Shown in pieces: positions 4,183-32,000 of a DNA stretch of 32,000 nt. The DNA lies in contig NC_008312.1 of the NCBI RefSeq assembly GCF_000014265.1, forward strand, positions 1,590,001-1,622,000. Reading direction: 5' to 3'. The DNA is from Trichodesmium erythraeum IMS101. Lineage in GTDB: Bacteria; Cyanobacteriota; Cyanobacteriia; Cyanobacteriales; Microcoleaceae. The translations under genes and the position numbers were made by a program. Below the pieces are notes generated by a model, which was not told the origin of the DNA, searched no databases, and was given only the letters and a program-made list of their open reading frames with translations. Every line of letters begins with the position of its first letter. Within the stretch, counting starts at the first letter, position 1.

Positions 4183-4482
4183 TTATCTACTAGCATTAAT
4201 TTGTAAAGCAGTTATTCTCTCAGAATTAGCGAATACTCCTTCTCCTTCCATTTGACTTATAGGTGGTTTAATCTCTATTTTCATAATTTTCTCAGTATAA
4301 ATACAAACTGTTTGATCCATTAAATGAAAGGTAATCCAAGGTTGTTTAAGTAAGTCTTGTAATTGTGTTTGAAATTGTTCTACATTAGCTGGGAAACTAA
4401 AGGTTTCTGTATTACCATCTATATAATAAAATTTTATTTGGATACTACTTTCTTGAGTATATTCAGCAAATGAACCTTTCAT
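4183..4482 (-). CDS. Hypothetical protein (99 aa)
   Basis: Clean ORF with non-low-complexity composition in an otherwise ORF-free AT-rich spacer. I recognise no family. Confidence 0.45.
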   Translation of the reverse strand: MKGSFAEYTQESSIQIKFYYIDGNTETFSFPANVEQFQTQLQDLLKQPWITFHLMDQTVCIYTEKIMKIEIKPPISQMEGEGVFANSERITALQINASR

Positions 4483-17554: not shown

Positions 17555-18409
17555 TTACCATTTTTTTATTGATTGAATTACTGTTTCATTATCTGCACTT
17601 TTTCCAAGATGACGCCATACAATTAAAGTCTGATTATCCGTTTCCCCCCCCTTGCTGAGATTGACTAATTAATTTCTTAGAGATTTTTTTTAAATCTCCT
17701 TCTGATAGGATATCTTTTAATTCTTTTTCCTGGAAATTACTACTCACTCCATCACTACATAATAATAGTAAATCTTCTGCATAAAGCGAAACATAATGTA
17801 TGGGTAAATCTGGTGGTAAATTATCACACCCTAAATAAAATTCTAACATATTCTTTCCCTCGTGGTGAGCTGCCATTTCTGAGATAATTATTCCTCCTCG
17901 TCTTATGGCACTTGCTAATGTGTGGTTGTCGGTAATTTGTCTGATTTTTTGACCATAATTTTGATGAGAATAATGATAGATTAGGCTGTCTCCTAAGTTG
18001 GAAATAATTGCTATTGCTTCGGAGATTAAGGCAACTGCTAATGTGGCTCCAGATTTATCCCAACTATTGTTTTTTATTATTCTTTTTATATGAGCGTTTG
18101 TTTCGGCGATCGCTTCTTTTATGGCTATAGTTAATGTTTCTATAGTTGGGAGTTTTTTGCTTTTTTCTTGGTTGTTAATACTGGGTTCAAATACTAAGGT
18201 TTCAAATAGGCTGAGGCTGATCTTTTTAGGACTTCTCTACTGATTTCTTCTCCATGTTCGTAACCTCCTATTCCATCTGATATTGCTAATAATGTTAATG
18301 GGCTTTGCTTTGGGTTTGGGGTGAGTTGGCAGATGATGAAGCTGTCTTCGTTTTTCGGTCGTTTGTTAGTTTCGCTACGACTTACATATTCAATGTTTGT
18401 TGTTTTCAT
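17555..18409 (-). pseudogene. PP2C-family Ser/Thr phosphatase with two frameshifts
   Basis: Three collinear frames. (1) MKTTN...NEDSFII...LLAISDGIGGYEHGEE (18409-18194). (2) ...GATLAVALI...NLGDSLIY...ITDNHT...LLLCSDGV... (to 17634). (3) DNQTLIVWRH...KKW* (to 17555). The shifts lie near 18195-18210 and at the C8/G8 run 17644-17651. Confidence 0.8.
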
Positions 18410-19153
18410 TTTTGGCTCTTGGGATTAAAATTAGATAATTTTATAGTTTTTGCTTTTTGGTTTTAATATTTTAAATTTTACGGTTTTTCTGCCGTTGTTA
18501 AATTGGCAAATTTTTCTGAGTTGCTGAATGAGGTTTCAATGTTTTTGGCGCTTTTTTGAGATTTTGTGATATCCTATACATAGGATATAATTTTCTACGC
18601 TTATACTTTAATTCATTTTTATGGCTTTTAATTCTTATTCTGCCGTTGTCTTGGTTTGTTTTTTTCTGATTCTTCTTTGCTCAAAATGACTAATTTTTCT
18701 CTGGTGGTTTTGGCGGTTTTGACAAATTATTTTTTGTGTGATAAGAAAACGGAATTTTTTTGATTTTTAGCAGTGGTTTTATGTTGAATAAAAAGTCTAG
18801 TGCGTAGGCGATATAACCTAAATAACATGATAATACCAAAATTTTCTTCGGGATGCAACCCTGATTTTTTGGTCGGCGCCAGTTTTTTGAGCTCCAGAAA
18901 ATGAGGATAAAAATATACCCTAGTTCAATTAGTGTTGATAAGAGCAAAAGCAACTACTGCTTTTATCATTCTTCCAGGAATTGAAAAGAATCAAACAACC
19001 TTTCGGCAAACCCACTCAGCTGTCTAACTCTGGTTGATTTTCGGAAGCTTGATTAAAAACTCAGGAACTGAGTGGATTCTTCCACACTCTTGATAAATTC
19101 CCATTTACCAGTCTATTATTCTGCCGGATTCTTTTTTTCTCTGATTCTTCTTT
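18263..19153. repeat. Left arm of a 0.89-kb inverted repeat (PP2C codons 1-49 + about 410-nt leader + promoter module)
   Basis: The reverse complement of 18263-19153 matches 27165-28054, with only scattered single-base differences in the stretches I compared by eye. Confidence 0.85.
18830..18858 (-). promoter_or_regulatory. Predicted promoter of the PP2C-kinase-vWA operon (module copy)
   Basis: On the minus strand: TTGCAT (18858-18853), a 17-nt spacer, then TGgTATTAT (-10 at 18835-18830). The box ACTAGACTTTTTATTCAAC is the reverse complement of 18783-18801. The leader to the PP2C ATG (18409) is about 410 nt. Confidence 0.55.
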
Positions 19154-19154
19154 A

Positions 19155-22100
19155 GAAAATTTGAGTAGAGTTATCCATATTTATGAAATTTTTAGCAGAA
19201 GACCAACACCATAATTTAAATTTGAAGACCTCAAAAGTTTCCCATTATAATCACCTACTTATTTCTTGAAATTTTTAATTCTAGACTTGGAATTTTGAAC
19301 TTTGAATTTTTGAATTTTTGAATTTTAAATTTTGAATGTAGGATTTTTTTCCTTTTCCCTTTTCCCTCTTTCCTTTTTTCCTTAAACTTCATAAAATTTG
19401 AGTAGAGTTATCCATATTTATCAAACTTTTAGCAGAAAACCAACACCATAATTTAAATTTGAAGACCTCAAAAGTTTCCCATTGTCATCACCTACTTATT
19501 TCTTGAAATTTTTAATTCTAGACTTGGAATTTTGAACTTTGAATTTTTGAATTTTTGAATTTTAAATTTTGAATGTAGGATTTTTTTTCCTTTTCCCTTT
19601 TCCCTCTTTCCTTTTTTCCTTAAACTTCAGAAAATTTGAGTAGAGTTATCCATATTTATCAAACTTTTAGCAGAAAACCAACACCATAATTTAAATTTGA
19701 AGACCTCAAAAGTTTCCCATTATCATCACCTACTTATTTCTTGAAATTTTTAATTCTAGACTTGGAATTTTGAACTTTGAATTTTTGAATTTTTGAATTT
19801 TAAATTTTGAATGTAGGATTTTTTTCCTTTTCCCTTTTCCCTCTTTCCTTTTTTCCTTAAACTTCAGAAAATTTGAGTAGAGTTATCCATATTTATGAAA
19901 TTTTTAGCAGAAGACCAACACCATAATTTAAATTTGAAGAGCTCAAAAGTTTCCCATTATAATCACCTACTTATTTCTTGAAATTTTTAATTCTAGACTT
20001 GGAATTTTGAACTTTGAATTTTTGAATTTTTGAATTTTAAATTTTGAATGTAGGATTTTTTTCCTTTTCCCTTTTCCCTCTTTCCTTTTTTCCTTAAACT
20101 TCAGAAAATTTGAGTAGAGTTATCGATATTTATCAAACTTTTAGCAGAAAACCAACACCATAATTTAAATTTGAAGACCTCAAAAGTTTCCCATTATCAT
20201 CACCTACTTATTTCTTGAAATTTTTAATTCTAGATTTGGAATTTTGAACTTTGAATTTGGAATTTTAAATTTTGAATGTAGGATTTTTTTCCTTTTCCCT
20301 TTTCCCTCTTTCCTTTTTTCCTTAAACTTCATAAAATTTGAGTATAGTTATCCATATTTATCACACTTTTAGCAGAAAACCGACACCATAATTTGAATTT
20401 TAAGAACTCAAAAGTTTCCCATTATCATCACCTACTTATTTCTTGAAATTTTTAATTCTAGACTTGGAATTTTGAACTTTGAATTTTTGAATTTTAAATT
20501 TTTGAATTTGGAATTTTAAATTTTGAATGTTGGATTTTTTTCCTTTTCCCTTTTCCCTCTTTCCTTTTTTCCTTAAACTTCAGAAAATTTGAGTATAGTT
20601 ATCCATATTTATCACACTTTTAGCAGAAAACCGACACCATAATTTGAATTTGAAGAACTCAAAAGTTTCCCATTATCATCACCTACTTATTTCTTGAAAT
20701 TTTTAATTCTAGACTTGGAATTTTGAACTTTGAATTTTTGAATTGTAAATTTTTGAATTTGGAATTTTAAATTTTGAATGTAGGATTTTTTTCCTTTTCC
20801 CTTTTCCCTCTTTCCTTTTTTCCTTAAACTTCAGAAAATTTGAGTAGAGTTATCCATATTTATGAAATTTTTAGCAGAAAACCGAAACCATAACTTAAAT
20901 TAGAAGACCTCAAAAGTTTCCCATTATCATCACCTACTTATTTCTTGAAATTTTTAATTCTAGATTTGGAATTTTGAACTTTGAATTTGGAATTTTAAAT
21001 TTTGAATGTAGGATTTTTTTCCTTTTCCCTTTTCCCTCTTTCCTTTTTTCCTTAAACTTCAGAAAATTTGAGTAGAGTTATCCATATTTATGAAATTTTT
21101 AGCAGAAGACCAACACCATAATTTAAATTTGAAGAGCTCAAAAGTTTCCCATTATCATCACCTACTTATTTCTTGAAATTTTTAATTCTAGATTTGGAAT
21201 TTTGAACTTTGAATTTGGAATTTTAAATTTTGAATGTAGGATTTTTTTCCTTTTCCCTTTTCCCTCTTTCCTTTTTTCCTTAAACTTCAGAAAATTTGAG
21301 TAGAGTTATCCATATTTATGAAATTTTTAGCAGAAAACCGAAACCATAACTTAAATTAGAAGACCTCAAAAGTTTCCCATTATCATCACCTACTTATTTC
21401 TTGAAATTTTTAATTCTAGACTTGGAATTTTGAACTTTGAATTTTTGAATTTTTGAATTTTAAATTTTGAATGTTGGATTTTTTTCCTTTTCCCTTTTCC
21501 CTCTTTCCTTTTTTCCTTAAACTTCAGAAAATTTGAGTATAGTTATCCATATTTATCACACTTTTAGCAGAAAACCGACACCATAATTTGAATTTGAAGA
21601 ACTCAAAAGTTTCCCATTATCATCACCTACTTATTTCTTGAAATTTTTAATTCTAGACTTGGAATTTTGAACTTTGAATTTTTGAATTGTAAATTTTTGA
21701 ATTTGGAATTTTAAATTTTGAATGTAGGATTTTTTTCCTTTTCCCTTTTCCCTCTTTCCTTTTTTCCTTAAACTTCAGAAAATTTGAGTAGAGTTATCCA
21801 TATTTATGAAATTTTTAGCAGAAAACCGAAACCATAACTTAAATTAGAAGACCTCAAAAGTTTCCCATTATCATCACCTACTTATTTCTTGAAATTTTTA
21901 ATTCTAGATTTGGAATTTTGAACTTTGAATTTGGAATTTTAAATTTTGAATGTAGGATTTTTTTCCTTTTCCCTTTTCCCTCTTTCCTTTTTTCCTTAAA
22001 CTTCAGAAAATTTGAGTAGAGTTATCCATATTTATGAAATTTTTAGCAGAAGACCAACACCATAATTTAAATTTGAAGAGCTCAAAAGTTTCCCATTATC

Positions 22101-22825
22101 ATCACCTACTTATTTCTTGAAATTTTTAATTCTAGATTTGGAATTTTGAACTTTGAATTTGGAATTTTAAATTTTGAATGTAGGATTTTTTTCCTTTTCC
22201 CTTTTCCCTCTTTCCTTTTTTCCTTAAACTTCAGAAAATTTGAGTAGAGTTATCCATATTTATGAAATTTTTAGCAGAAAACCGAAACCATAACTTAAAT
22301 TAGAAGACCTCAAAAGTTTCCCATTATCATCACCTACTTATTTCTTGAAATTTTTAATTCTAGACTTGGAATTTTGAACTTTGAATTTTTGAATTTTTGA
22401 ATTTTAAATTTTGAATGTTGGATTTTTTTCCTTTTCCCTTTTCCCTCTTTCCTTTTTTCCTTAAACTTCAGAAAATTTGAGTAGAGTTATCCATATTTAT
22501 CAAACTTTTAGCAGAAAACCGAAACCATAACTTAAATTAGAAGACCTCAAAAGTTTCCCATTATCATCACCTACTTATTTCTTGAAATTTTTAATTCTAG
22601 ACTTGGAATTTTGAACTTTGAATTTTTGAATTTTTGAATTTTAAATTTTGAATGTTGGATTTTTTTCCTTTTCCCTTTTCCCTCTTTCCTTTTTTCCTTA
22701 AACTTCAGAAAATTTGAGTAGAGTTATCCATATTTATCAAACTTTTAGCAGAAAACCGAAACCATAATTTAAATTTGAAGACCTCAAAAGTTTCCCATTA
22801 TAATCACCTAATCATCACCTACTTA
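19155..22825 (+). repeat. Tandem array A: 15 full + 1 partial units of 228/237/251 bp
   Basis: The unit marker GAAAATTTGAGTAGAG recurs at 19155, 19392, 19630, 19867, 20104, 20332, 20583, 20834, 21062, 21290, 21527, 21778, 22006, 22234, 22471 and 22708. Each unit has a (T)GAATTTT microsatellite and a 34-nt pyrimidine tract. The array ends 19 nt before the target-1 ATG. Confidence 0.95.
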
Positions 22826-22843: not shown

Positions 22844-24713
22844 ATGCGTTGCCTAAACTGCTATACCGATGGTATCCCACTTGAGACAGAAATATGTTCC
22901 AACTGTGGCGCATACCTACCATCACTGACCCGAGACCTTCTCAAACCAGGAACTCAACTTCGAGCCCAGACCTATCGAATAGACTACCCCTTAGGTCGAG
23001 GAGGGTTCGGCGTTACCTATTGAGGACACCACACATTATTAGAACAAATAGTCGCCATCAAAGAATACTATCCCCAAAACTACCCCCTGCGACACCCCAC
23101 CACTGGCGGCTTCACCATTCCCACAAACCAACAGGAAATATTTCAACGGGGTTTACAAAGATTTCTCCGAGAAGGGAAAATATTAGCCCAACTAAATCAT
23201 CTTCACGTGGTGGGGGTAACTGACTTATTTAAGGAAAATGAAACAGCTTACATGGTGATGGAGCTAGTTACAGGAAAAAGTCTCAGAAAAGAATTAGACT
23301 CTCAACCCCAGAAAAAATTTCCTCCTCAAAAAGTCAAAAAAATAATTACTGACCTCGTATCAGCATTATCCGCAGTACATAAAAAAGGAATATTTCACCT
23401 GGATATAAAACCCGATAATATTTTGCTAACTCCAGAAGGGCGGTTAGTATTAATTGACTTTGGCTCAGCACAACAAACCTTTGGTACTTCCATGGCTACT
23501 TCCAGCACTCGGACTTTTACTGAAGGTTATGTAGCTCCGGAAGTTCTCGCCGGGGGAGAAGTAGGAGTAGAAAGCGATATTTTTGAAGTCGGAATGATGG
23601 TTTATGAAATGTTGAGTGGGCAGTTACCTCCTAATGCTTTGGAACGTTTATTATTAAAAGCAAAAGGAAAAAGTTGGGAACCAGAAGGTTTAGAGTCATC
23701 TTGGCAAAAGCTGATAATGTCGGCTTTGGTTTTGGAAAAGGAAGGTCGCCCTGGAAATGTTGAAAAGTGGTGGGAGATAAATTTTCAGGAAAAATCAACT
23801 GACAGGACTCAGGAGTCAAAATTGAAAATATGGGAATTTATACAGAGAAAGAAAGATGTAAATTCTCCACCCCGACAAAAATTTAGTTTTGAGGTAATAA
23901 AGGTTAATTCCCGGGGTAAAGAAATTGACCGTCGTTCCTACGAAGCAGAATTTTTCGCAGAAAATTTAGGTAGGGGAGGGGGGTAGTCTTGGAAATGGTT
24001 TATATTCCTGGGGGAAGTTTTCTCATGGGGTCGCCGGAAAATGAGGCGGAAAGATACTCAATAAACTCTGATGAAGGTCCCCAACATCAAGTAAATCTCC
24101 AGCCTTTTTATATGAGCAAATATTCTATTACTCAAGACCAGTACCAAGCATGGGAAATAATCCTTCTTACTTTAAAGGAGGAAAACGCCCAGTAGAAAAA
24201 GTGAGCTGGCACGACGCTACAAAGTTTTGTCAGAAGCTATCATCAAAAACTGGGAAAATTTACACACTACCTAGTGAGAGTCAATGGAAATATGCTTGTC
24301 GCGCCGGGACTACTGCTCCTTTTTATTTTGGAGAAACTATAACGCCTGGGTTAGTTAACTACAGTGGTAACTATCCTTACGCCAATGCTCCTAAAGGAAA
24401 ATATCGAGGAGAAACAACAGATATAGGAAGTTTTCCTCCTAATGCTTTTGGTTTATATGATATGCACGGCAATGTTTGGGAATGGTGTCTAGATACTTGC
24501 CACGATAATTATAATGGAGCACCTACTGATGGAAGTTCTTGGGAAAGTGGGGGTGATAGTAATGACAGGTTGCTCCGTGGCGGTTGCTGGATCCACAATT
24601 CTAGATTTTGCCGGAGTGCCTGGCGCAACTATCTCTATGCCGACTACCTCTCCAACGATAGGGGTTTTCGAGTCATCTCCTCTTCCCCGGTGGTTTCTGG
24701 CTTTCATTCCTAG
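22844..24713 (+). pseudogene. DGR target 1: zinc-ribbon / Ser/Thr kinase / FGE-sulfatase (C-type lectin fold) protein, disrupted
   Basis: Collinear along its full length with the intact paralog at 29340-31193. It carries an in-frame TGA at 23021-23023 (the paralog has CGA Arg in GVTYRGHH). A frameshift sits near 23965-23990 (an extra 5 nt relative to the paralog). A second frameshift sits near 24145-24152 (4 nt missing). ORF pieces 23207-23986, 23989-24195 and 24150-24713 belong to it. Confidence 0.85.
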
Positions 24714-24721
24714 TATTCTTC
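24572..24721 (+). other. DGR variable repeat VR1 (3' end of target 1, runs 8 nt past the stop)
   Basis: Gap-free alignment to TR at offset 2031. There are 15 mismatches, 12 of them at TR adenines. The 3' IMH-like part is identical to TR except at 24680 (C in VR1, G in TR). Confidence 0.85.
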
Positions 24722-24730
24722 CACTTTTTA

Positions 24731-24775
24731 CTTTTCCCCTTTCCCCCTTTTTCCTTCTTTCCTTTTTCCTCTTTT
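24731..24775 (+). repeat. 45-nt uninterrupted polypyrimidine tract just downstream of VR1
   Basis: CTTTTCCCCTTTCCCCCTTTTTCCTTCTTTCCTTTTTCCTCTTTT. Related tracts occur in every array A/A' unit and about 50 nt downstream of the target-2 stop (purine strand at 29251-29289). No such tract follows TR. Confidence 0.8.
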
Positions 24776-25166
24776 GAGTCCCGCTTTAGCCGGCCGAAAT
24801 TTTTTTTCAAATTTAGGGTTGTTATGGCTTAGGCCATAGATAAGAAAGCCAAGGTCCCAAAATTTGAAGTAGGTTGGGCCTCAGAACGAAACCCAACATT
24901 CTCCCAATGGCAATAACGGCCTTATACCAAGGACTTATCTTGATACTGAAATATGAAATACTGAAATTATTAGGGGGTAAAAGTTTTAAAAGTTGAAAGT
25001 TTTAATCCATGACTTTTGATTTTGGTAAGGGGGGGTTGACTTCTAAAAACCGTGAAAAAAAAAGATTAATTTCATGGGAAAGAAACTGAAAAACAGTTAG
25101 CTTTAGGTTTTCTATTGACTCTTTTTGCACTTCCCCGAAATAGTATAAAAATTTAATCGCTATAGA

Positions 25167-25469
25167 ATGAACGAATTATCAATTATCCAAAAAACTTACG
25201 ACTTAATCATTTGGTATGTACCAATAATTAACAGACTACCTAAAACTCACAAATTTCAAATTGGCGATCGCTTAGTCAACAACTTATATAATTTTCTAGA
25301 ACTACTAATTATTGCCAAATATGCCTCAGAAAAACTCAACATACTAGAATCTCTAAACCCCAAACTAGACATAGTTCGTTATCAAAACAGAATTATTTTA
25401 GACTTCCAAATAATCAACAATAAACGCTACGAATATATCAGCCAAATAATCACAGAAATAGGCAAATAA
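25167..25469 (+). CDS. avd: Avd-like DGR accessory protein (four-helix-bundle, 23S-rRNA-IVS protein family), probably truncated at the C-terminus by a TAA
   Basis: 100 aa, helical. N-terminal YDLIIWYVPIINRLPKTHKFQIGDRL matches the Avd/IVS-protein pattern. Directly after the stop at 25467-25469 the same frame continues as LGIWIKQQKPKNP* (to 25511), resembling the usual Avd tail ..LGGW.K. Confidence 0.7.
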   Translation: MNELSIIQKTYDLIIWYVPIINRLPKTHKFQIGDRLVNNLYNFLELLIIAKYASEKLNILESLNPKLDIVRYQNRIILDFQIINNKRYEYISQIITEIGK

Positions 25470-25521
25470 TTAGGAATTTGGATTAAACAACAAAAACCGA
25501 AAAATCCTTAAACCATCAAAC

Positions 25522-26581
25522 ATGAAAAGACAGAAAAACTTATATCCCCAAATTACATGTTTTGACAACCTCCTCCTCGCAGCAAAAAAATCCCAGAAAG
25601 GAAAAAAATATAAACAGAATTTTCTGAAATTTAACTACAACTTAGAATTCATAATTACTACAACTAAAAACAGAATTATAAACTAAAACCTATCAACCAG
25701 GAAAATATAACACCTTGAAAATTATCGAAAGAAAACCCAGAATAATTTCCGCAGCTCCCTACCGAGACCGAATCATCCATCACGCCTTATGTAATATTAT
25801 TATTCCCATCTTTGAAAAAACATTTATCTACGATACTTATGCCAATAGAATCAATTTTGGTACTCATAAAGCCCTAAGTCGCTTCACCAAATTTTCCTGT
25901 TCCAGCTGTTACGTTTTACAATGCGACATAGTTAAATATTTTCCCAGCATCGACCATCAAATTCTCAAAGAAATTATTCGTCGCCAAATCAAATGTCAAG
26001 ATACTCTCTGGTTAATTGAAAAAATTATTGATGGAAGTAACCAACAAATTCCGGTATTAACTAAATTTCCCGGAGACGACTTACTCTCTTCAATAAATAG
26101 GAGAAAAGGTTTACCCCTAGGAAATTTAACTAGCCAATTTTTCGCCAACTTATACCTCAATAATTTCGATCATTTCATCAAAGAAGAACTGAAAGTCAAA
26201 AAATATCTACGTTATGTCGATGACTTTGCTTTATTCTCAGACGACAAAAAATTTCTAGTTATTGCCAGACAAAAAATTGAAACATATCTAGCCAACCTCT
26301 GCCTCAAGATTCATCCTATTAAAAGCCAATTATTTCAAACAAAAAAAGGAGCTAACTTTGTTGGTTTCCTAGTATTGCCAAACCGCATTAGAATACGTTC
26401 AGAAAATTTAAGAGCTGCCAGAAAAAAAATTCGACAATTACACGCACATTATCGACAAGGAAACATAGAATCTAGCCACATCCAAAAATCTCTACAAAGT
26501 TGGTTTGCTCATTTAGACCATGGCAATACCTGGCGCTTGAAACAAAAAATACTAACTTTTCTCAATACTATGGGAGAATAA
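25522..26581 (+). pseudogene. DGR-type reverse transcriptase, N-terminal region disrupted
   Basis: MKRQKNLYPQITCFDNLLLAAKKSQKGKKY..NYNLE reads in frame 1. After a 1-nt frameshift near 25648-25655 the sequence continues as [46 protein letters not shown]..., with an in-frame TAA at 25679-25681. It has the DGR-RT motif [17 protein letters not shown] and RYVDDF. It is collinear with Bordetella bRT as I recall it. The longest open piece is 25715-26581. Confidence 0.85.
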
Positions 26582-26599
26582 TTACGGGACTGACAAACC

Positions 26600-26752
26600 A
26601 AAGCTCCGTGGCGGTAGCTGGAACCACAATTCTAGACATTGCCGGAGTGCCAGGGGCAACTATAAAAATGCCGACAACCTCAACAACAATAGGGGTTTTC
26701 GAGTCATCTCGTCTTCCCCGGTGGTTTCTGGCTTTCATTCCTAGTATTCTTC
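26600..26752 (+). other. DGR template repeat (TR), 19 nt downstream of the RT stop
   Basis: Homologous to VR1 and VR2. Adenine-rich, and in the target frame it reads ..GGSWNHNSRHCRSARGNYKNADNLNNNRGFRVISSSPVV. The ORF-track entry 26500-26769 is an out-of-frame reading of it. Confidence 0.85.
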
Positions 26753-26763
26753 ATTGCCTGAGT

Positions 26764-27208
26764 TGGTAAATGGGAATTTATCAAGAGTGTGGAAGAGTCC
26801 AGTCAGTTCCTGAGTTTTTAATCAAGCTTCCGAAAATCAACCAGAGTTAGACAGCTGAGTGGGTTTGCCGAAAGGTTGTCTGATTCTTTTCAATTCCTGG
26901 AAGAATGATAAAAGCAGTAGTTGCTTTTGCTCCTATCAACACTCATTGAACTAGGGTATATTTTTATCCTTTATCCTCATTCTCGGGAGCTCCAAAAAAC
27001 TGTCGCCGACCCAAAAATCAGGGTTGCATGCTGAAGAAAATTTTGGTATTATCATGTTAGTAGGTGTAGCTCGCCCATACACTAGACTTTTTATTCAACA
27101 TAAAACCACTGCTAAAAATCAAAACCGCCAAAACCACCAGAGAAAAATTAGTCATTTTCAGCAAATAAGAATCAGAGAAAAAAAGAAACCGGCAGAATAA
27201 TAGACTGG
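26764..27208 (+). repeat. Extra tandem copy of the about 440-bp promoter module, beginning 11 nt after TR
   Basis: 26764-27208 and 27209-27650 are direct repeats (TGGTAAATGGGAATTTATCAAGAGTGTGGAAGA...). They differ by substitutions and small indels. Confidence 0.8.
27024..27052 (+). promoter_or_regulatory. Module promoter, copy in the extra tandem unit
   Basis: TTGCAT (27024-27029), a 17-nt spacer, then TGgTATTAT (-10 at 27047-27052). The box ACTAGACTTTTTATTCAAC is at 27081-27099. Confidence 0.5.
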
Positions 27209-27458
27209 TAAATGGGAATTTATCAAGAGTGTGGAAGAATCCACTCAGTTCCAGAGTTTTTAATCAAGCTTCCGAAAATCAACCAGAGTTAGACAGCTGA
27301 GTGGGTTTGCCGAAAGGTTGTCTGATTCTTTTCAATTCCTGGAAGAATGATAAAAGCAGTAGTTGCTTTTGCTCTTATCAAGACTAATTGAACTAGGGTA
27401 TATTTTTATCCTCATTTTCTGGGGCTCAAAAAACTGGCGCCGACCAAAAAAATCAGGG

Positions 27459-27487
27459 TTGCATCCCGAAGAAAATTTTGGTATTAT
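27459..27487 (+). promoter_or_regulatory. Module promoter, duplicate of the PP2C operon promoter
   Basis: TTGCAT (27459-27464), a 17-nt spacer, then TGgTATTAT (-10 at 27482-27487). The box is at 27516-27534. Confidence 0.5.
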
Positions 27488-27907
27488 CATGTTAGTTAGG
27501 TGATATCGCCTACGCACTAGACTTTTTATTCAACATAAGACCACTGCTAAAAATCAAAAAAATTCCGTTTTCTTATCACACAAAAAATAATTTGTCAAAA
27601 CCGCCAAAACCACCAGAGAAAAATTAGTCATTTTGAGCAAAGAAGAATCAGAAAAAAACAAACCAAGACAACGGCAGAATAAGAATTAAGAGCCATAAAA
27701 ATGAATTAAAGTATAAGCGTAGAAAATTATATCCTATGTATAGGATATCACAAAATCTCAAAAAAGCGCCAAAAACATTGAAACCTCATTCAGCAACTCA
27801 GAAAAATTTGCCAATTTAACAACGGCAGAAAAACCGTAAAATTTAAAATATTAAAACCAAAAAGCAAAAACTATAAAATTATCTAATTTTAATCCCAAGA
27901 GCCAAAA

Positions 27908-28054
27908 ATGAAAACAACAAACATTGAATATGTAAGTCGTAGCGAAACTAACAAACGACCGAAAAACGAAGACAGCTTCATCATCTGCCAACTCACCCCA
28001 AACCCAAAGCAAAGCCCATTAACATTATTAGCAATATCAGATGGAATAGGAGGT
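27908..28054 (+). pseudogene. Truncated duplicate of PP2C codons 1-49
   Basis: Reads MKTTNIEYVSRSETNKRPKNEDSFIICQLTPNPKQSPLTLLAISDGIGG, the same as 18409-18263. Homology stops at 28054, where array A' begins. Confidence 0.85.
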
Positions 28055-29339
28055 AAGGAAAAAAATTCAAGATTCAAAATTTAAAATTCCAAATTCAAAG
28101 TTCAAAATTCCAAATCTAGAATTAAAAATTTCAAGAAATAAGTAGGTGATGATAATGGGAAACCTTTGAGTTCTTCAAATTCAAATTATGGTGTTGGTTT
28201 TCTGCCAAAAGTTTGATAAGTATGGATAACTCCACTCAAATTTTCTGAAGTTTAAGGAAAAAAGGAAAGAGGAAAAAGGGAAAAGGGAAAAGGAAAAAAA
28301 ATCCAAATTCCAAATTCAAAAATTCCAAATTTAAAATTCCAAATTCAAAGTTCAAAATTCCAAATCTAGAATTAAAAATTTCAAGAAATAAGTAGGTGAT
28401 GATAATGGGAAACCTTTGAGGTCTTCAAATTCAAATTATTGCGCCGGTCTTCTGCTAAAAGTTTGATAAGTATGGATAACTCCACTTAAATTTTCTGAAG
28501 TTTAAGGAAAAAAGGAAAGAGGGAAAAGGGAAAAGGAAAAAAAATCCTAAGTTCAAAATTTAAAATTCCAAATTCAAAGTTCAAAATTCCAAATCTAGAA
28601 TTAAAAATTTCAAGAAATAAGTAGGTGATGATAATGGGAAACCTTTGATGTCTTCAAATTCAAATTATGGTGCCGGTCTTCTGCTAAAAATTTCATAAAA
28701 AATATGGATAACTCCACTCAAATTTTCTGAAGTTTAAGGAAAAAAGGAAAGAGGGAAAAGGGAAAAGGAAAAAGGGAAAAGGAAAAAAATTCCAAATTCC
28801 AAATTCAAAAATTCCAAATTTAAAATTCCAAATTCAAAGTTCAAAATTCTAAATCTAGAATTAAAAATTTCAATAAATAAGTAGGTGATGATAATGGGAA
28901 ACCTTTGAGGTCTTCAAATTCAAATTATTGCGCCGGTCTTCTGCTAAAAGTTTGATAAGTATGGATAACTCCACTTAAATTTTCTGAAGTTTAAGGAAAA
29001 AAGGAAAGAGGGAAAAGGGAAAAGGAAAAAGGGAAAAGGAAAAAAATTCCAAATTCCAAATTCAAAAATTCCAAATTTAAAATTCCAAATTCAAAGTTCA
29101 AAATTCCAAATCTAGAATTAAAAATTTCAATAAATAAGTAGGTGATGATAATGGGAAACCTTTGAGGTCTTCAAATTCAAATTATTGCGCCGGTCTTCTG
29201 CTAAAAGTTTGATAAGTATGGATAACTCCACTCAAATTTTCTGAAGTTTAAGGAAAAAAGGAAAGACAGAAAAGGGAAAAGGAAAAAAATCCTAAATTCA
29301 AAACCTAAAATTAAAAATTAAAAATCCAAAAGAAAAACA
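28055..29339 (-). repeat. Tandem array A' (inverted copy of the array A family), about 5 units of 232-257 bp
   Basis: The marker CTCAAATTTTC (reverse complement of GAAAATTTGAG; two copies read CTTAAATTTTC) ends at 28245, 28495, 28727, 28984 and 29241. These units have diverged somewhat from array A units. The array abuts the target-2 stop codon at 29340. Confidence 0.9.
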
Positions 29340-29481
29340 CTAAGAATTAAAAGCAGAAACCACCGGGGAAGATGAGACAACCCGAAAACCCCTATAGTAG
29401 TAAAGATCATCGGCATTGTAATAGAAGCGCCAGGCACTACGACAATTTGTAGAATAGCTGTCCCAGCAACCGCCACGGAGC
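29340..29481 (-). other. Variable repeat VR2 (TR-homologous 3' end of target 2)
   Basis: Gap-free alignment to TR 26603-26744 gives 30 mismatches, 15 at TR adenines and 15 elsewhere (mostly C->T). It is TR-related but not a clean product of this TR. Confidence 0.6.
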
Positions 29482-31193
29482 ACTCTTTTACGATTACTAC
29501 CTCCAGTTTTCCAAGCACTTCCGTTAGTAGGTGCTCCATAATAATTATGGTGCCAAGCATCTAAACACCATTCCGAAACATTGCCGTGCATATCATATAA
29601 ACCAAAGGCATTAGGAAGAAAACTTCCCACATCTGTTGTTTGTTCCCGATACTCTCCAAATGGAGCATTGCCGTAAGGATAGTTACCATCGTAGTTAACT
29701 AACTCAGACGTCATAGTTTCTCCAAAATAAAAAGGAGTACTTGTCCCGGCACGACAAGCATATTCCCATTGACTTTCGCTGGGCAACCTGTAAATTTTCC
29801 CAGTTTTCGACGATAGCTTCTCACAAAACTTTGTAGCGTCGTGCCAGCTCACTCTTTCTACTGGGCGTTTTCCTCCTTTAAAGTAAGAAGGATTATCTCC
29901 CATAATAGCTTGGTACTGATCTTGAGTAATAGGATATTTGCTCATCAAGAAAGGCTTAATATTAACTTGATGTTGTGGACTTTCACTATCGAATCTTTCG
30001 TCCTCATATTCCGGTGACCCCATGAGAAAACTTCCCCCAGGAATATAAACCATTTCCAAGACCAACCCACTATCTAAATTTTCTGCCAAAAATTCTGCTT
30101 CGTAGGAACGACGGTCAATTTCTTTACCCCGGGAATTAACCTTTATTACCTCAAAACCAAATTTTTGTCGGGGCGGAGAACTTATATCTTTCTTTCTGTT
30201 TTTAAATTCCTTTGTTTTCCATCCTGACTCCTGAGTCCTTTCAGTTGATTTTTTGTGAAAATTCATTTCCCACCACTCCTCAATATTTCCAGGGCGACCT
30301 TCCTTTGCCAAAACTAAAGCCGACATTAGCAACTTTTGCCAAGACGACTCTAAGCCTTCAGGTTCCCAACTTTTTTCTTTTGATAATGAACGTTCCAGAA
30401 CATTGGGAGGTAACTGCCCACTCAACATTTCATAAACCATCATTCCTACTTCAAAAATATCACTTTCTACCCCTACCTCCCCCCTGGCGAGAACCTCCGG
30501 AGCCGCATAACTCTCAGCAAAACTCTCAGTGCTGGAAGTACCCATCGAAGTACCAAAAGTTTGTTTTGCCGAGCCAAAGTCAGTCAATACTAACCGTCCT
30601 TCTGGAGTTAGTAAAATATTATCGGGTTTTATATCCAGGTGAAATATTCCTTGTTGATGTACTGCCGATAATGCTGATACAAGGTCAGTAATTATTTCTT
30701 TGACTTTTTGAGGGGGAAATTTTTTCTCAGGTTGAGAATCTAATTCTTTTCTGAGACTTTTTCCTCTAACTAGCTCCATCACCAGGTAAGCTGTTTCATT
30801 TTCCTCAAATAAATCAATTACCCGCACCACATGAGGATGATTTAGTTGGGCTAATATTTTCCCTTCCTGGAGAAACCTTCGCAAACCCTGTTGAAATATT
30901 TCCTGTTGGTTTCTGGGAATGGTGAAACCTCCAGTGGTGGGATGTCGCAGGGCGTAATTTTGGGGATAGTATTCTTTAATAGCGACTATTTGTTTTAATA
31001 ATGTATGGTGTCCTCGATAAGTAACACCAAACCCTCCTCGACCTAAGGGGTAGTCTATTTGATAGGGCTTGTCTCCTAGTTGAGTACCTGGTGTTAGGAG
31101 GCCTCGGATTAGTGATGGTAGGTATGCGCCACAGTTATAACATATTTTTGTCTCAAGTGGAATACCGTCGGTATGGCAGTTTAAGCAACGCAT
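29340..31193 (-). CDS. DGR-type target 2: zinc-ribbon / Ser/Thr kinase / FGE-sulfatase (CLec-fold) protein, intact
   Basis: 617 aa. Zinc ribbon CLNCH...CYNCG. Kinase motifs GRGGFGVTY, HLDIKPDNILL, DFGSA and AAPE. FGE-sulfatase motifs RVSWHDATKFC, RLPSESQWEYACRAGT, GLYDMHGNVSEWC and LRGGCW. VR2 lies at the extreme C-terminus. Confidence 0.9.
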   Translation of the reverse strand: MRCLNCHTDGIPLETKICYNCGAYLPSLIRGLLTPGTQLGDKPYQIDYPLGRGGFGVTYRGHHTLLKQIVAIKEYYPQNYALRHPTTGGFTIPRNQQEIFQQGLRRFLQEGKILAQLNHPHVVRVIDLFEENETAYLVMELVRGKSLRKELDSQPEKKFPPQKVKEIITDLVSALSAVHQQGIFHLDIKPDNILLTPEGRLVLTDFGSAKQTFGTSMGTSSTESFAESYAAPEVLARGEVGVESDIFEVGMMVYEMLSGQLPPNVLERSLSKEKSWEPEGLESSWQKLLMSALVLAKEGRPGNIEEWWEMNFHKKSTERTQESGWKTKEFKNRKKDISSPPRQKFGFEVIKVNSRGKEIDRRSYEAEFLAENLDSGLVLEMVYIPGGSFLMGSPEYEDERFDSESPQHQVNIKPFLMSKYPITQDQYQAIMGDNPSYFKGGKRPVERVSWHDATKFCEKLSSKTGKIYRLPSESQWEYACRAGTSTPFYFGETMTSELVNYDGNYPYGNAPFGEYREQTTDVGSFLPNAFGLYDMHGNVSEWCLDAWHHNYYGAPTNGSAWKTGGSNRKRVLRGGCWDSYSTNCRSAWRFYYNADDLYYYRGFRVVSSSPVVSAFNS

Positions 31194-31284
31194 GATTTTA
31201 AGAGGTCAAAAATTAGATAAGAGTTTCAAAGCTTTCCGTAATTATAGTGTGGAGAATTTCCTGAAAAAGAAGGAAAAATGAGCA

Positions 31285-31313
31285 TAGCATCTTCAAAATA
31301 ACTATGATATAAT
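31285..31313 (+). promoter_or_regulatory. Array C unit 1 promoter
   Basis: TAGCAT (31285-31290), a 17-nt spacer, then TGaTATAAT (-10 at 31308-31313). Confidence 0.5.
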
Positions 31314-31530
31314 TTATGTATAGTTATAAATGTGGCACTATACTAGACTTTTTATTCAATGTAAAAAAAGCGATCGCTACAACACAACAATATATAAAAG
31401 GAAATTTAAGACATTCGAATGTTAGACAGTAAAAGATGTCAGAGAGCTTAAAAAAAAAATAACAACTAAATCATTATTACTTGCATTTTTTTTCATTCTG
31501 TGAAGCTCCAAAAAAAAGGAACAACGAGGG

Positions 31531-31559
31531 TAGCATCTTCAAAATAACTATGGTATAAT
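31531..31559 (+). promoter_or_regulatory. Array C unit 2 promoter
   Basis: TAGCAT (31531-31536), a 17-nt spacer, then TGgTATAAT (-10 at 31554-31559). Confidence 0.5.
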
Positions 31560-31779
31560 AAATAATGGGTATTCAATGCATATACTAGACTTTTTATTCA
31601 ACGTAAAAAAAGCGATCGCTACAACACAACAATATATAAAAGGAAATTTAAGACATTCGAATGTTAGACAGTAAAAGATGTCAGAGAGCTTAAAAAAAAA
31701 ATAACAACTAAATCATTATTACTTGCATTTTTTTTCATTCTGGGAAGCTCAAAAAAAAAGGAACGAGAAACAACGACGG

Positions 31780-31808
31780 TAGCATCTTCAAAATAACTAT
31801 GGTATAAT
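31780..31808 (+). promoter_or_regulatory. Array C unit 3 promoter
   Basis: TAGCAT (31780-31785), a 17-nt spacer, then TGgTATAAT (-10 at 31803-31808). Confidence 0.5.
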
Positions 31809-32000
31809 AAATAATGAGGATTAAATCCATATACTAGACTTTTTATTCAACGTAAAAAAAGCGATCGCCACAACACAACAATATATAAAAGGAAATTTAA
31901 GACATTCGAATGTTGGATAGTAAAAGATGTCAGAGAGCTAAAAAAAAAATAACAACTAAATCATTATTACTTGCATTTTTTTTTCATTCTGTGAAGCTCC

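Follow-up and report, generated by a model that had tools for sequence, protein, structure and literature searches.

The window analysed here, 32,000 nucleotides from the genome of Trichodesmium erythraeum IMS101 (positions 1,590,001-1,622,000), contains DGR1 of this strain (RT Tery_1035), a diversity-generating retroelement (DGR) locus made up of a target gene and avd together with RT and TR, and a second paralog that resembles a target lies close by. Very probably, DGR1 has been pseudogenised naturally and recently, an ordinary outcome for elements of this kind. Recent inactivation is favoured because the lesions are derived, mixed in type and nested among strains, and because they are accompanied by relaxed selection and by a VR1 that no longer varies. 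Neither a full-length target 1, nor a full-length Avd, nor a functional RT would be producible from the DGR1 locus.

Identity and layout of the locus

The translated proteins of the window match the IMS101 entries ABG50406, ABG50407 and ABG50408 exactly, and both the window coordinates and the TR sequence agree with 'DGR1' in Table S1 of PMC8867640 (Table 1). In the literature DGR1 (Tery_1035) is one of a pair of DGRs known from T. erythraeum IMS101. PMC8867640 assigns two proximal targets to this DGR and leaves variation of both their VRs in Tara reads unreported; the locus is also covered by the survey PMC7517822. As catalogued, truncated ORFs are entered as RT and target with their fragment status unmentioned, and no statement of DGR1 decay was found in the literature searched. 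The annotation is corrected here in that the 288-aa RT and the 187-aa 'target' of DGR1 in the literature are pseudogene fragments. The RT pseudogene published in 2014 (Tery_1728/1729, stop at codon 39) was considered as the same locus and rejected, since strand, codon position and accession order do not fit and Table S1 of PMC8867640 assigns the window locus to the other element, DGR1.

Table 1. Features of DGR1 and its surroundings in window coordinates, with the corresponding entries of PMC8867640 Table S1.
Feature	Positions	Strand	Basis	Entry in PMC8867640 Table S1
Target gene 1 (Ser/Thr kinase fused to FGE-sulfatase/CLec domain), pseudogene	22844..24713	+	Paralog/orthologue alignment; Pfam Pkinase and FGE-sulfatase on fragments	Target_1, 1614150-1614713 (window 24150-24713)
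VR1, variable repeat at 3' end of target 1	24572..24721	+	Comparison to TR	
avd accessory gene, nonsense-shortened (100 aa, not 114)	25167..25511	+	Pfam bAvd; NCBIfam DivGenRetAVD	
DGR reverse transcriptase Tery_1035, pseudogene	25522..26581	+	Three-frame translation; 9-orthologue DNA alignment; tblastn with an intact orthologue; Pfam RVT_1	RT, 1615715-1616581 (window 25715-26581)
Template repeat TR1	26603..26752	+	Identical to DGR1 TR in PMC8867640 Table S1	DGR1 TR
Paralogous kinase/FGE-sulfatase gene (Target_2, ABG50408), intact	29340..31193	-	617-aa ORF; Pkinase and FGE-sulfatase domains	Target_2, 1619340-1621193 (window 29340-31193)
VR2 of Target_2 paralog	29481-29332	-	Comparison to TR	

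The components of the cassette are those of a DGR. The repaired RT belongs with the RTs of the DGR clade: it has the Bordetella phage bRT (PDB 8ub7) as its top PDB match, followed only then by group II intron RTs, it matches Pfam RVT_1, and the SQ dipeptide visible in its motif 4 is DGR-typical (PMC3521204). The accessory gene product scores 51 bits on Pfam bAvd (cut-off 40). Once repaired to 114 aa it reaches 124 bits with NCBIfam DivGenRetAVD, for which the cut-off is 80, and its repaired frame stops 10 nt upstream of the RT ATG. In target 1, PF03781 (FGE-sulfatase) spans the C-terminal fragment and VR1 terminates at the stop codon, so that the VR occupies the 3' end of a target with a ligand-binding fold of the CLec/FGE-sulfatase type. 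Mismatches at TR adenines characterise VR1 and not VR2. The intact frames of an active DGR were not found, as RT has one frameshift and two stops, Avd one stop, and target 1 one stop and two frameshifts. A gathering-threshold Rfam scan of the whole window gave zero matches, and scans around avd-RT-TR for consensus promoters (8 sites against 7.1 expected) and for terminators remained at background level.

Lesions in target 1, avd and RT

Each lesion listed in the initial annotation was recovered, several of them now to the nucleotide. In target 1 there is a TGA at 23021-23023, where the paralog, the Red Sea MAG_R01 and the thiebautii-type orthologue have CGA; the insertion suspected near 23965-23990 is one of 5 nt (AGGGG) at 23972-23976, and the deletion near 24145-24152 is one of 4 nt (TATT) between 24149 and 24150. 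The gene is broken across three frames, with ORFs at 22844-23023, 23207-23986, 23989-24195 and 24150-24713, and it is only the last of these fragments that appears as 'Target_1' in the literature. A GAA>TAA change at 25467-25469 ends Avd prematurely, and the frame does run on past this stop as had been proposed, continuing LGIWIKQQKPKNP up to the TAA at 25509-25511. At site 25467 most orthologues have GAA, one has CAA and three have GAT, and 114-aa Avd proteins were found in the Tara contig L090, MAG_R01 and JGI contigs. In RT, the 1-nt frameshift reported near 25648-25655 is an extra T at 25648/25649 (GAATTCA versus GAG/GAA-TCA in nine orthologues), and the in-frame TAA at 25679-25681 (codon 53) is GAA in orthologues. 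A seventh lesion, overlooked earlier, is a further in-frame TAA at 25652-25654 (codon 44), immediately after the extra T and again GAA in orthologues. The annotated 288-aa RT ORF begins at TTG 25715. The description of the surroundings as undegraded was only partly right, since the neighbouring PP2C phosphatase gene is interrupted by two frameshifts and the Zn-ribbon/VWA gene contains an in-frame stop.

Short homopolymers, namely the G run 23972-23982 and the TT of 25648-25649, contain or adjoin some of the lesions, as could be expected if the stops and indels were sequencing or assembly errors in the reference genome. However, short-read assemblies from several samples agree on them, three of the lesions are base substitutions rather than indels, and the different isolate GBRTRLIN201 encodes the same 100-aa Avd. 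Five independent assemblies (L085-L089) have all four Avd and RT lesions plus the TGA, and one of these, L088, also has both target frameshifts and thereby all seven lesions in a sequence that matches the window at 4418/4420 bases; judged by sample names and coverage, several comparison assemblies apparently come from cultures of closely related strains, so that as samples of nature they are only partly independent. Strain 21-75 and MAG St11_bin5 have a 288-aa RT ORF that is ~99% identical to that of IMS101 and falls in the same 90% cluster. Reference error is thus a negligible explanation, and the earlier judgement that general sequencing error is unlikely was borne out by independent assemblies.

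Paralog-like patches that remove the +5 or -4 lesion in L085-L087 and L089 were considered as natural alleles or gene-conversion repair and were rejected. Of the contigs from sample SAMN05368344, that of the paralog (L095) has a patch resembling target 1 and that of target 1 (L085) has a paralog-like patch in the adjacent stretch, and such reciprocal patches fit bubble collapse between the 87%-identical paralogs during assembly.

Comparison with orthologues

Orthologous loci of Okeania, other Trichodesmium MAGs and Nostocales have no extra T, and each of the three TAA sites is a sense codon there, in most cases GAA. The predominance of GAA, with few CAA or GAT, and the lack of the extra T in orthologues mark these lesions as derived mutations and not recoding signals. 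It had been considered that expression of the cassette needs recoding, and it could in principle still function by readthrough at the TAAs and the TGA and by programmed ribosomal frameshifting at the indels, given that the ORFs are open and well conserved outside the lesions and that every stop is a single-base change from a sense codon. Nevertheless, RT alone would require one frameshift and two readthroughs within 11 codons, Avd one more readthrough, and the target one readthrough and two frameshifts (+5 and -4 nt). A gene under recoding is expected to have a conserved site and purifying selection on the downstream frame; here the sites are unconserved, orthologues having GAA or CGA and no indels, and two of them are polymorphic even within ~99.6%-identical sequence, the wild contig L090 having GAA there. 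TAA also terminates the RT gene and the repaired Avd frame, and the dN/dS of about 1 or more since the Red Sea split (see below) indicates lost constraint. Orthologues with identical lesions and ongoing VR diversification would have pointed to recoding, but the orthologues are free of the lesions and VR1 is static in the assemblies. Taken together, these observations make recoding extremely unlikely.

The possibility that a truncated RT initiating near 25715 is the working enzyme was likewise raised initially, and the 288-aa product from TTG 25715 does keep the RVT_1 core (profile 8-203 of 205), is an annotated protein in IMS101 and has near-identical annotated 288-aa ORFs in 21-75 and St11_bin5. 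This is highly improbable, however, since the 64 N-terminal residues that it misses align one-to-one with residues 3-66 of bRT (8ub7) and are conserved across cyanobacterial orthologues, and conservation that reaches as far as bRT suggests that this segment is an integral part of DGR RTs. The 288-aa ORF has also lost otherwise conserved arginines (FSRSSRY to FSCSSCY) and has accumulated 12 nonsynonymous against 2 synonymous changes, while Avd is shortened too and VR1 is static.

VR1, VR2 and TR1

The adenine-mutagenesis signature of VR1 is nearly as clean as had been described. TR and VR1 differ at 15 positions over 150 nt, and 12 of these are TR adenines (hypergeometric P = 9e-7); the other three are elsewhere, and two of them are mutations in the IMS101 TR itself. 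Measured over 140 nt against the less mutated TR of the Red Sea MAG_R01, 12/13 VR1 mismatches are at adenines. In AAY/AGN codons, the adenine mismatches of VR1 fall on the first and second positions, with one on the third. TR1 has five lineage-specific substitutions relative to the MAG_R01 TR (window 26637, 26655, 26666, 26745 and 26747).

At the level of assembly consensus, 12 cluster members and six further IMS101-type assemblies that span VR1 all have the same VR1 sequence, so that the variation at TR adenines among close genomes that marks an active DGR was not seen. In the 12 cluster members framework substitutions occur elsewhere with VR1 unchanged, and contigs assemble straight through VR1. 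Variation of VR1 was seen only in comparison with the more distant MAG_R01 and thiebautii-type lineages: 20/140 positions differ between IMS101 and MAG_R01, 18 of them at TR adenines, compared with ~1% difference in the coding sequence that flanks VR1. Judged from these consensus sequences, below which rare variants are possible, VR1 is apparently now frozen and its adenine signature historical. Scans of metagenome contigs with a TR-derived pattern (N at adenine positions) and with the invariant 3' part of TR/VR gave no match, and neither did an exact look-up of the thiebautii-type target-1 protein in the protein collection for VR variants.

The 18 adenine-site differences from the Red Sea lineage show that DGR1 worked until shortly after the IMS101-type and Red Sea T. 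erythraeum lineages had parted. By analogy with the family, an Avd-RT complex would have copied TR RNA into cDNA with errors at adenines, and the mutagenised cDNA would then have taken the place of VR1, where the kinase/CLec target gene has its 3' end. VR2 is an old former target; over 150 nt it has 16 A and 16 non-A mismatches to TR, some of them in the 3' homing region, and a single non-A base distinguishes it between IMS101 and MAG_R01.

TR1 is well preserved (five changes in 150 nt relative to MAG_R01), and TR1 and VR1 share the same 3' end. For the second DGR of IMS101, wild populations have an intact RT and the targets are variable in Tara reads (PMC4143802, PMC8867640). One may speculate that an RT encoded elsewhere, for instance the intact wild DGR2 RT, uses TR1 in trans and still rewrites TR1-homologous VRs, as the initial annotation had allowed, but this is very unlikely. 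It is known from BPP-1 that the RT-Avd complexes of DGRs recognise cognate RNA that flanks the TR, which counts against use in trans. Every IMS101-type sequence recovered has the same VR1, including the Tara-derived contig L092, and the one base that separates the VR2 of the two lineages is not an adenine. Furthermore, Tery_3426, the sole remote locus homologous to TR1, is marked in PMC8867640 Table S1 as lacking hypervariability, and the RT of DGR2, the only other DGR RT of the genome, is reported to be a pseudogene in IMS101 itself (PMC4143802).

Selection and order of decay

Since the split from the Red Sea lineage, dN/dS has been ~1 or more for RT, Avd and target 1, with nonsynonymous to synonymous changes of 12:2, 7:0 and 15:3, respectively, counts that are small at 14 (RT) to 18 (target 1) substitutions per gene; the long-term dN/dS of RT versus Okeania is 0.14. 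These ratios indicate that selection on DGR1 has probably been relaxed since the IMS101-type and Red Sea lineages separated. Constraint was lost and lesions then built up stepwise. The Tara contig L090 has GAA at 25467 and 25679, yet it retains the extra T and the TAA at 25652, and the retention of the frameshift and the first TAA together with GAA at the two other TAA sites indicates stepwise decay. Alleles with the ancestral GRGVVLEM sequence have no 5-nt insertion. By breadth of sharing, the extra T of RT with the codon 44 TAA and the target TGA may be the earliest lesions, and the less widely shared 4-nt target deletion, Avd TAA, codon 53 TAA of RT and 5-nt target insertion may have followed, an order read from few contigs, some of which have assembly artefacts. 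Lesions that are common to GBRTRLIN201, 21-75, St11_bin5 and a Tara Oceans contig are older than cultivation. Of the initial proposal of a very recently inactivated DGR, recent inactivation is therefore supported and 'very' has to be qualified.

Relation to other DGRs

DGR2 (RT Tery_1728/1729; Pfreundt et al. 2014, PMC4143802) resides in the same organism and resembles DGR1 in its C-terminal FGE-sulfatase/CLec VR targets, in a TR downstream of RT, in an RT that is a pseudogene and in VRs that were unchanged upon resequencing in culture. It differs by having just one stop (codon 39), a TR unrelated to that of DGR1 and 17 remote targets, with hypervariable targets in Tara reads, whereas DGR1 has seven lesions spread over three genes, static VRs and a single remote locus homologous to TR1. 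The inactivation of DGR2 has been attributed to cultivation; the DGR1 lesions, in contrast, are common to other isolates and wild contigs and are no culture artefact. This sharing with other isolates and a Tara contig indicates that DGR loss in T. erythraeum is natural. The T. erythraeum genome is known to be rich in pseudogenes. Since the DGR2 RT was already reported broken and the DGR1 RT is broken as well, IMS101 is without an intact DGR reverse transcriptase, which is relevant to anyone studying DGR activity in this strain.

DGRs that combine an inactivated RT with an A-only TR/VR pair have been described as a class and read as recently inactivated (Schillinger et al. 2012, DiGReF, PMC3521204). 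Inactivated DGRs are in general excess, and in another study stops or truncations led to the removal of more than half of the candidates (Wu et al. 2018, PMC5758913). DGR1 shares with the DiGReF class the nonsense and frameshift mutations in RT and TR/VR mismatches almost only at adenines, but its decay is further along, with Avd, the target gene and TR also hit, and comparison to sister lineages allows it to be put in order and given a relative date. Activity of a DGR should not be read from a clean A-only TR/VR signature. Otherwise DGR1 is an ordinary case of frequent DGR decay.

With the mechanistic prototype, the DGR of Bordetella phage BPP-1 (bRT-Avd-TR-mtd), DGR1 has in common that an Avd homologue is present, that TR-to-VR mismatches are adenine-specific and that the target has its VR at the 3' end, and its RT aligns to bRT residues 2-338 (E = 6e-49). 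Unlike the phage system, DGR1 is chromosomal and non-functional and has its TR downstream of RT, and its target is a cytoplasmic-type kinase/CLec fusion rather than a phage tail fibre.

Parallel loss of RT in Trichodesmium

The DGR1-type RT is broken in every Trichodesmium lineage sampled, with lesions that differ per lineage. One may speculate that these losses reflect not neutral decay but repeated selection to stop diversification and lock a useful VR allele, in the manner of 'diversify, then discard the mutator', or, as a variant, that TR1 is kept for occasional use in trans by the wild DGR2 RT; we consider this reading unlikely. The IMS101-type RT has the extra T and two TAAs. In the Red Sea MAG_R01 the RT frame shifts by -1 inside a poly-A run close to codon 272; in the thiebautii-type RT codon 10 is a stop, the frame shifts near codon 28 and 192 nt are inserted. 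The VR1 sequences of these lineages differ from one another almost only at TR adenines.

Identity of the locus and its lesions

The diversity-generating retroelement catalogued as DGR1 in the IMS101 genome (PMC8867640 Table S1) displays every defining feature of such elements: a reverse transcriptase (RT; Tery_1035), Avd, an adenine-biased pair of template and variable repeats (TR/VR), and an FGE-sulfatase/CLec domain, here C-terminal in target 1. What it fails is function, with seven lesions across three genes. The closest solved relative of the RT is the Bordetella phage bRT (8ub7, E = 6e-49), the repaired Avd scores 124 bits on DivGenRetAVD, and the TR is identical to the catalogued one. 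Three proteins of the locus match T. erythraeum IMS101 entries exactly: Avd (ABG50406, 100 aa), the RT ORF (ABG50407, 288 aa) and a kinase/FGE-sulfatase (ABG50408, 617 aa). The window corresponds to genome positions 1,590,001-1,622,000 on the plus strand. The RT pseudogene of 2014 (Tery_1728/1729; TR transcription start 2632789r; stop at codon 39) was rejected as the same locus; it belongs to DGR2, a separate element of the same genome.

Features of DGR1 and its surroundings; genome positions as catalogued in PMC8867640 Table S1
Feature	Window position	Strand	Catalogued genome position
Target 1	22844-24713	+	1614150-1614713 (+; last fragment)
avd	25167-25511	+	
RT	25522-26581	+	1615715-1616581 (+; 288-aa ORF)
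TR	26603-26752	+	
Intact paralog of target 1 (Target_2)	31193-29340	-	1619340-1621193 (-)
Inverted repeat, arms	18257-19153; 27163-28060		
Tandem arrays	19150-22810; 28063-29287; 31264-31999		
Zinc-ribbon/VWA gene	15049-14276	-	
Ser/Thr kinase-FHA gene	16259-15060	-	
PP2C-type phosphatase gene	18409-17558	-	
Duplicated PP2C 5' end	27908-28060	+	

Aligned to its 87%-identical paralog, target 1 shows a TGA at 23021-23023, where the paralog has CGA, an insertion of 5 nt at 23972-23976 and a deletion of 4 nt after 24149. The three lesions leave the gene as four ORFs in three different frames, and the direction of each change is upheld by the orthologues of Red Sea MAG_R01 and a thiebautii-type JGI contig. 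In Avd the reading frame is cut at TAA 25467-25469, a codon that is GAA in most aligned orthologues, and runs on beyond it for 13 codons. In the RT, one surplus T lies at 25648/25649, followed by a TAA at 25679-25681. These six lesions, claimed in the initial annotation, are confirmed and slightly extended by a second RT stop, TAA at 25652-25654; orthologues have GAA in place of both RT stops. All three TAA stops are of one mutation type, GAA to TAA (G to T), and the wild contig L090 shows only 8 differences in 2030 bp, two of which are at these stops. In a sequence rich in A and in GAA, the shared mutation type may be coincidental.

Independent support for the lesions

Sequencing error as the source of the stops and indels is excluded, since the lesions recur in independent assemblies. 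Five of these (L085-L089) share the TGA together with every lesion of Avd and the RT; one of them, L088, has only 2 differences to the window in 4420 bases. GBRTRLIN201 has an Avd of the same 100 aa, and strain 21-75 and MAG St11_bin5 have a 288-aa RT ORF about 99% identical to that of the window. Contig L090 (Logan; run ERR1726644, which we take to be Tara Oceans) is 99.6% identical to the window and has GAA at 25467 and 25679, yet the surplus T is retained, as is the TAA at 25652. A genuine allele (GRGVVLEM) lacks the 5-nt insertion. Expression by recoding, suggested initially, is rejected, as it would require seven separate events, and the sites are neither conserved nor fixed.

Certain contigs lack the 5-nt or 4-nt lesion within short paralog-like patches. 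Within a given sample, target 1 and paralog contigs swap such patches (ENA assemblies L085-L087, L089, L095, L096), and in SAMN05368344 a target-1-like patch in the paralog contig adjoins the stretch where the target 1 contig is paralog-like. This reciprocity led us to reject the patches as alleles; they are best explained by assembly bubble collapse between the 87%-identical paralogs. Such artefacts lead to genes wrongly called "repaired" or "broken" in public protein collections, e.g. P0008, P0018 and P0027.

TR/VR signature and timing of the loss

TR and VR1, the variable repeat of target 1, differ at 15 of 150 nt, 12 of them TR adenines (P = 9e-7), and with a single exception these 12 fall at first or second codon positions. 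VR1 differs from that of MAG_R01 at 20 of 140 positions, 18 being TR adenines, while the coding flanks differ by about 1%. VR1 is identical in 12 of 12 members of its 90% cluster, which differ from each other elsewhere (G/E, I/V, R/G, M/I, T/A), and contigs assemble through it uninterrupted. Taken together, the adenine-site differences, the similar flanks and the static VR1 indicate that DGR1 rewrote VR1 after or around the split between these T. erythraeum lineages and has been silent since. The recent inactivation first proposed is supported, with the qualifier that it is natural and older than cultivation.

Nonsynonymous to synonymous changes since the split from MAG_R01 stand at 12:2 for the RT, 7:0 for Avd and 15:3 for target 1, counts that are small yet agree with each other; the long-term dN/dS of the RT against Okeania is 0.14. 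The 288-aa RT ORF (start TTG 25715) is without 64 N-terminal residues; the missing stretch aligns to residues 3-66 of bRT, and its conservation extends to all cyanobacterial orthologues. That this truncated form is the working enzyme is rejected: a conserved part is missing and it is under relaxed selection.

Relative to MAG_R01, five TR substitutions occurred on the IMS101 side, and these account for two of the three non-adenine TR/VR1 mismatches. The TR 3' end reads …CCTAGCACTCTTC in other lineages and that of VR1 …CCTAGTATTCTTC (compared with MAG_R01 contig L091:11221-11223). At 26745 and 26747 the IMS101 TR has the VR1 version, so that both 3' ends are now identical; either two C>T changes or a conversion event in which VR1 overwrote the TR could account for this.

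VR2, the paralog's repeat, has 16 non-adenine mismatches to TR over 150 nt, part of them within the 3' homing region, and its single difference between lineages is non-adenine. VR2 ceased to be a target long ago. Use of the TR in trans by an RT elsewhere is rejected, as VR1 and VR2 are static and the sole remote TR1-homologous locus is listed as not hypervariable (PMC8867640 Table S1).

DGR1 orthologues in other lineages

The RT orthologue is broken in each other Trichodesmium lineage sampled, by different lesions every time. In MAG_R01 the frame shifts by -1 within a poly-A run close to codon 272, and target 1 has lost 4 nt; the thiebautii-type contigs (L093/L094, JGI 3300044449/50) combine a stop at codon 10 with a frameshift near codon 28 and an insertion of 192 nt; at least two frameshifts affect MAG_R02. 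Two Okeania-related MAGs (L002, L027) have an RT stop or frameshift, and the RT of Okeania SIO2C9 is intact. A protein search found no full-length RT orthologue above 86% identity. In MAG_R01, adenines account for 9 of the 10 differences between VR1 and its own TR; for the JGI contig the figure is 10 of 11.

DGRs that combine an inactivated RT with A-only TR/VR pairs have been on record since 2012, when they were taken as recently inactivated (PMC3521204), and a 2018 survey dropped over half of its candidate DGRs owing to stops and truncations (PMC5758913). DGR1 is a new, well-documented example of a known phenomenon; the locus is catalogued, and no mention of its decayed state was found in the papers searched. 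The practical value lies in a corrected annotation, and IMS101 has no intact DGR RT.

Genomic surroundings

The arms of an inverted repeat (about 0.9 kb, 98-99% complementary) enclose an 8-kb segment with a tandem array and the DGR1 cassette. Relative to MAG_R01 and the thiebautii-type contig L093, IMS101 carries this segment in inverted orientation; those two contigs are collinear in the order paralog, target 1, avd, RT, TR, PP2C/kinase cluster. The large non-coding arrays comprise a 237-bp unit in 15.5 copies immediately upstream of target 1, a related 257-bp unit in 4.9 copies in opposite orientation, and a 249-bp unit in 3 copies; at the matching place in MAG_R01 the 237-bp-unit array spans only about 380 bp.

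The zinc-ribbon/VWA, Ser/Thr kinase-FHA and PP2C genes form a conserved cluster in which the kinase gene is intact. In IMS101 the PP2C gene has become a pseudogene: compared with the MAG_R01 (284 aa) and JGI (279 aa) proteins its frame changes twice, and its first 51 codons are duplicated within the inverted repeat. An in-frame stop (…DGV*VRV…) interrupts the zinc-ribbon/VWA gene, which the JGI contig has in intact form (258 aa) and which is called as separate genes of 73 aa and 176 aa in MAG_R01.
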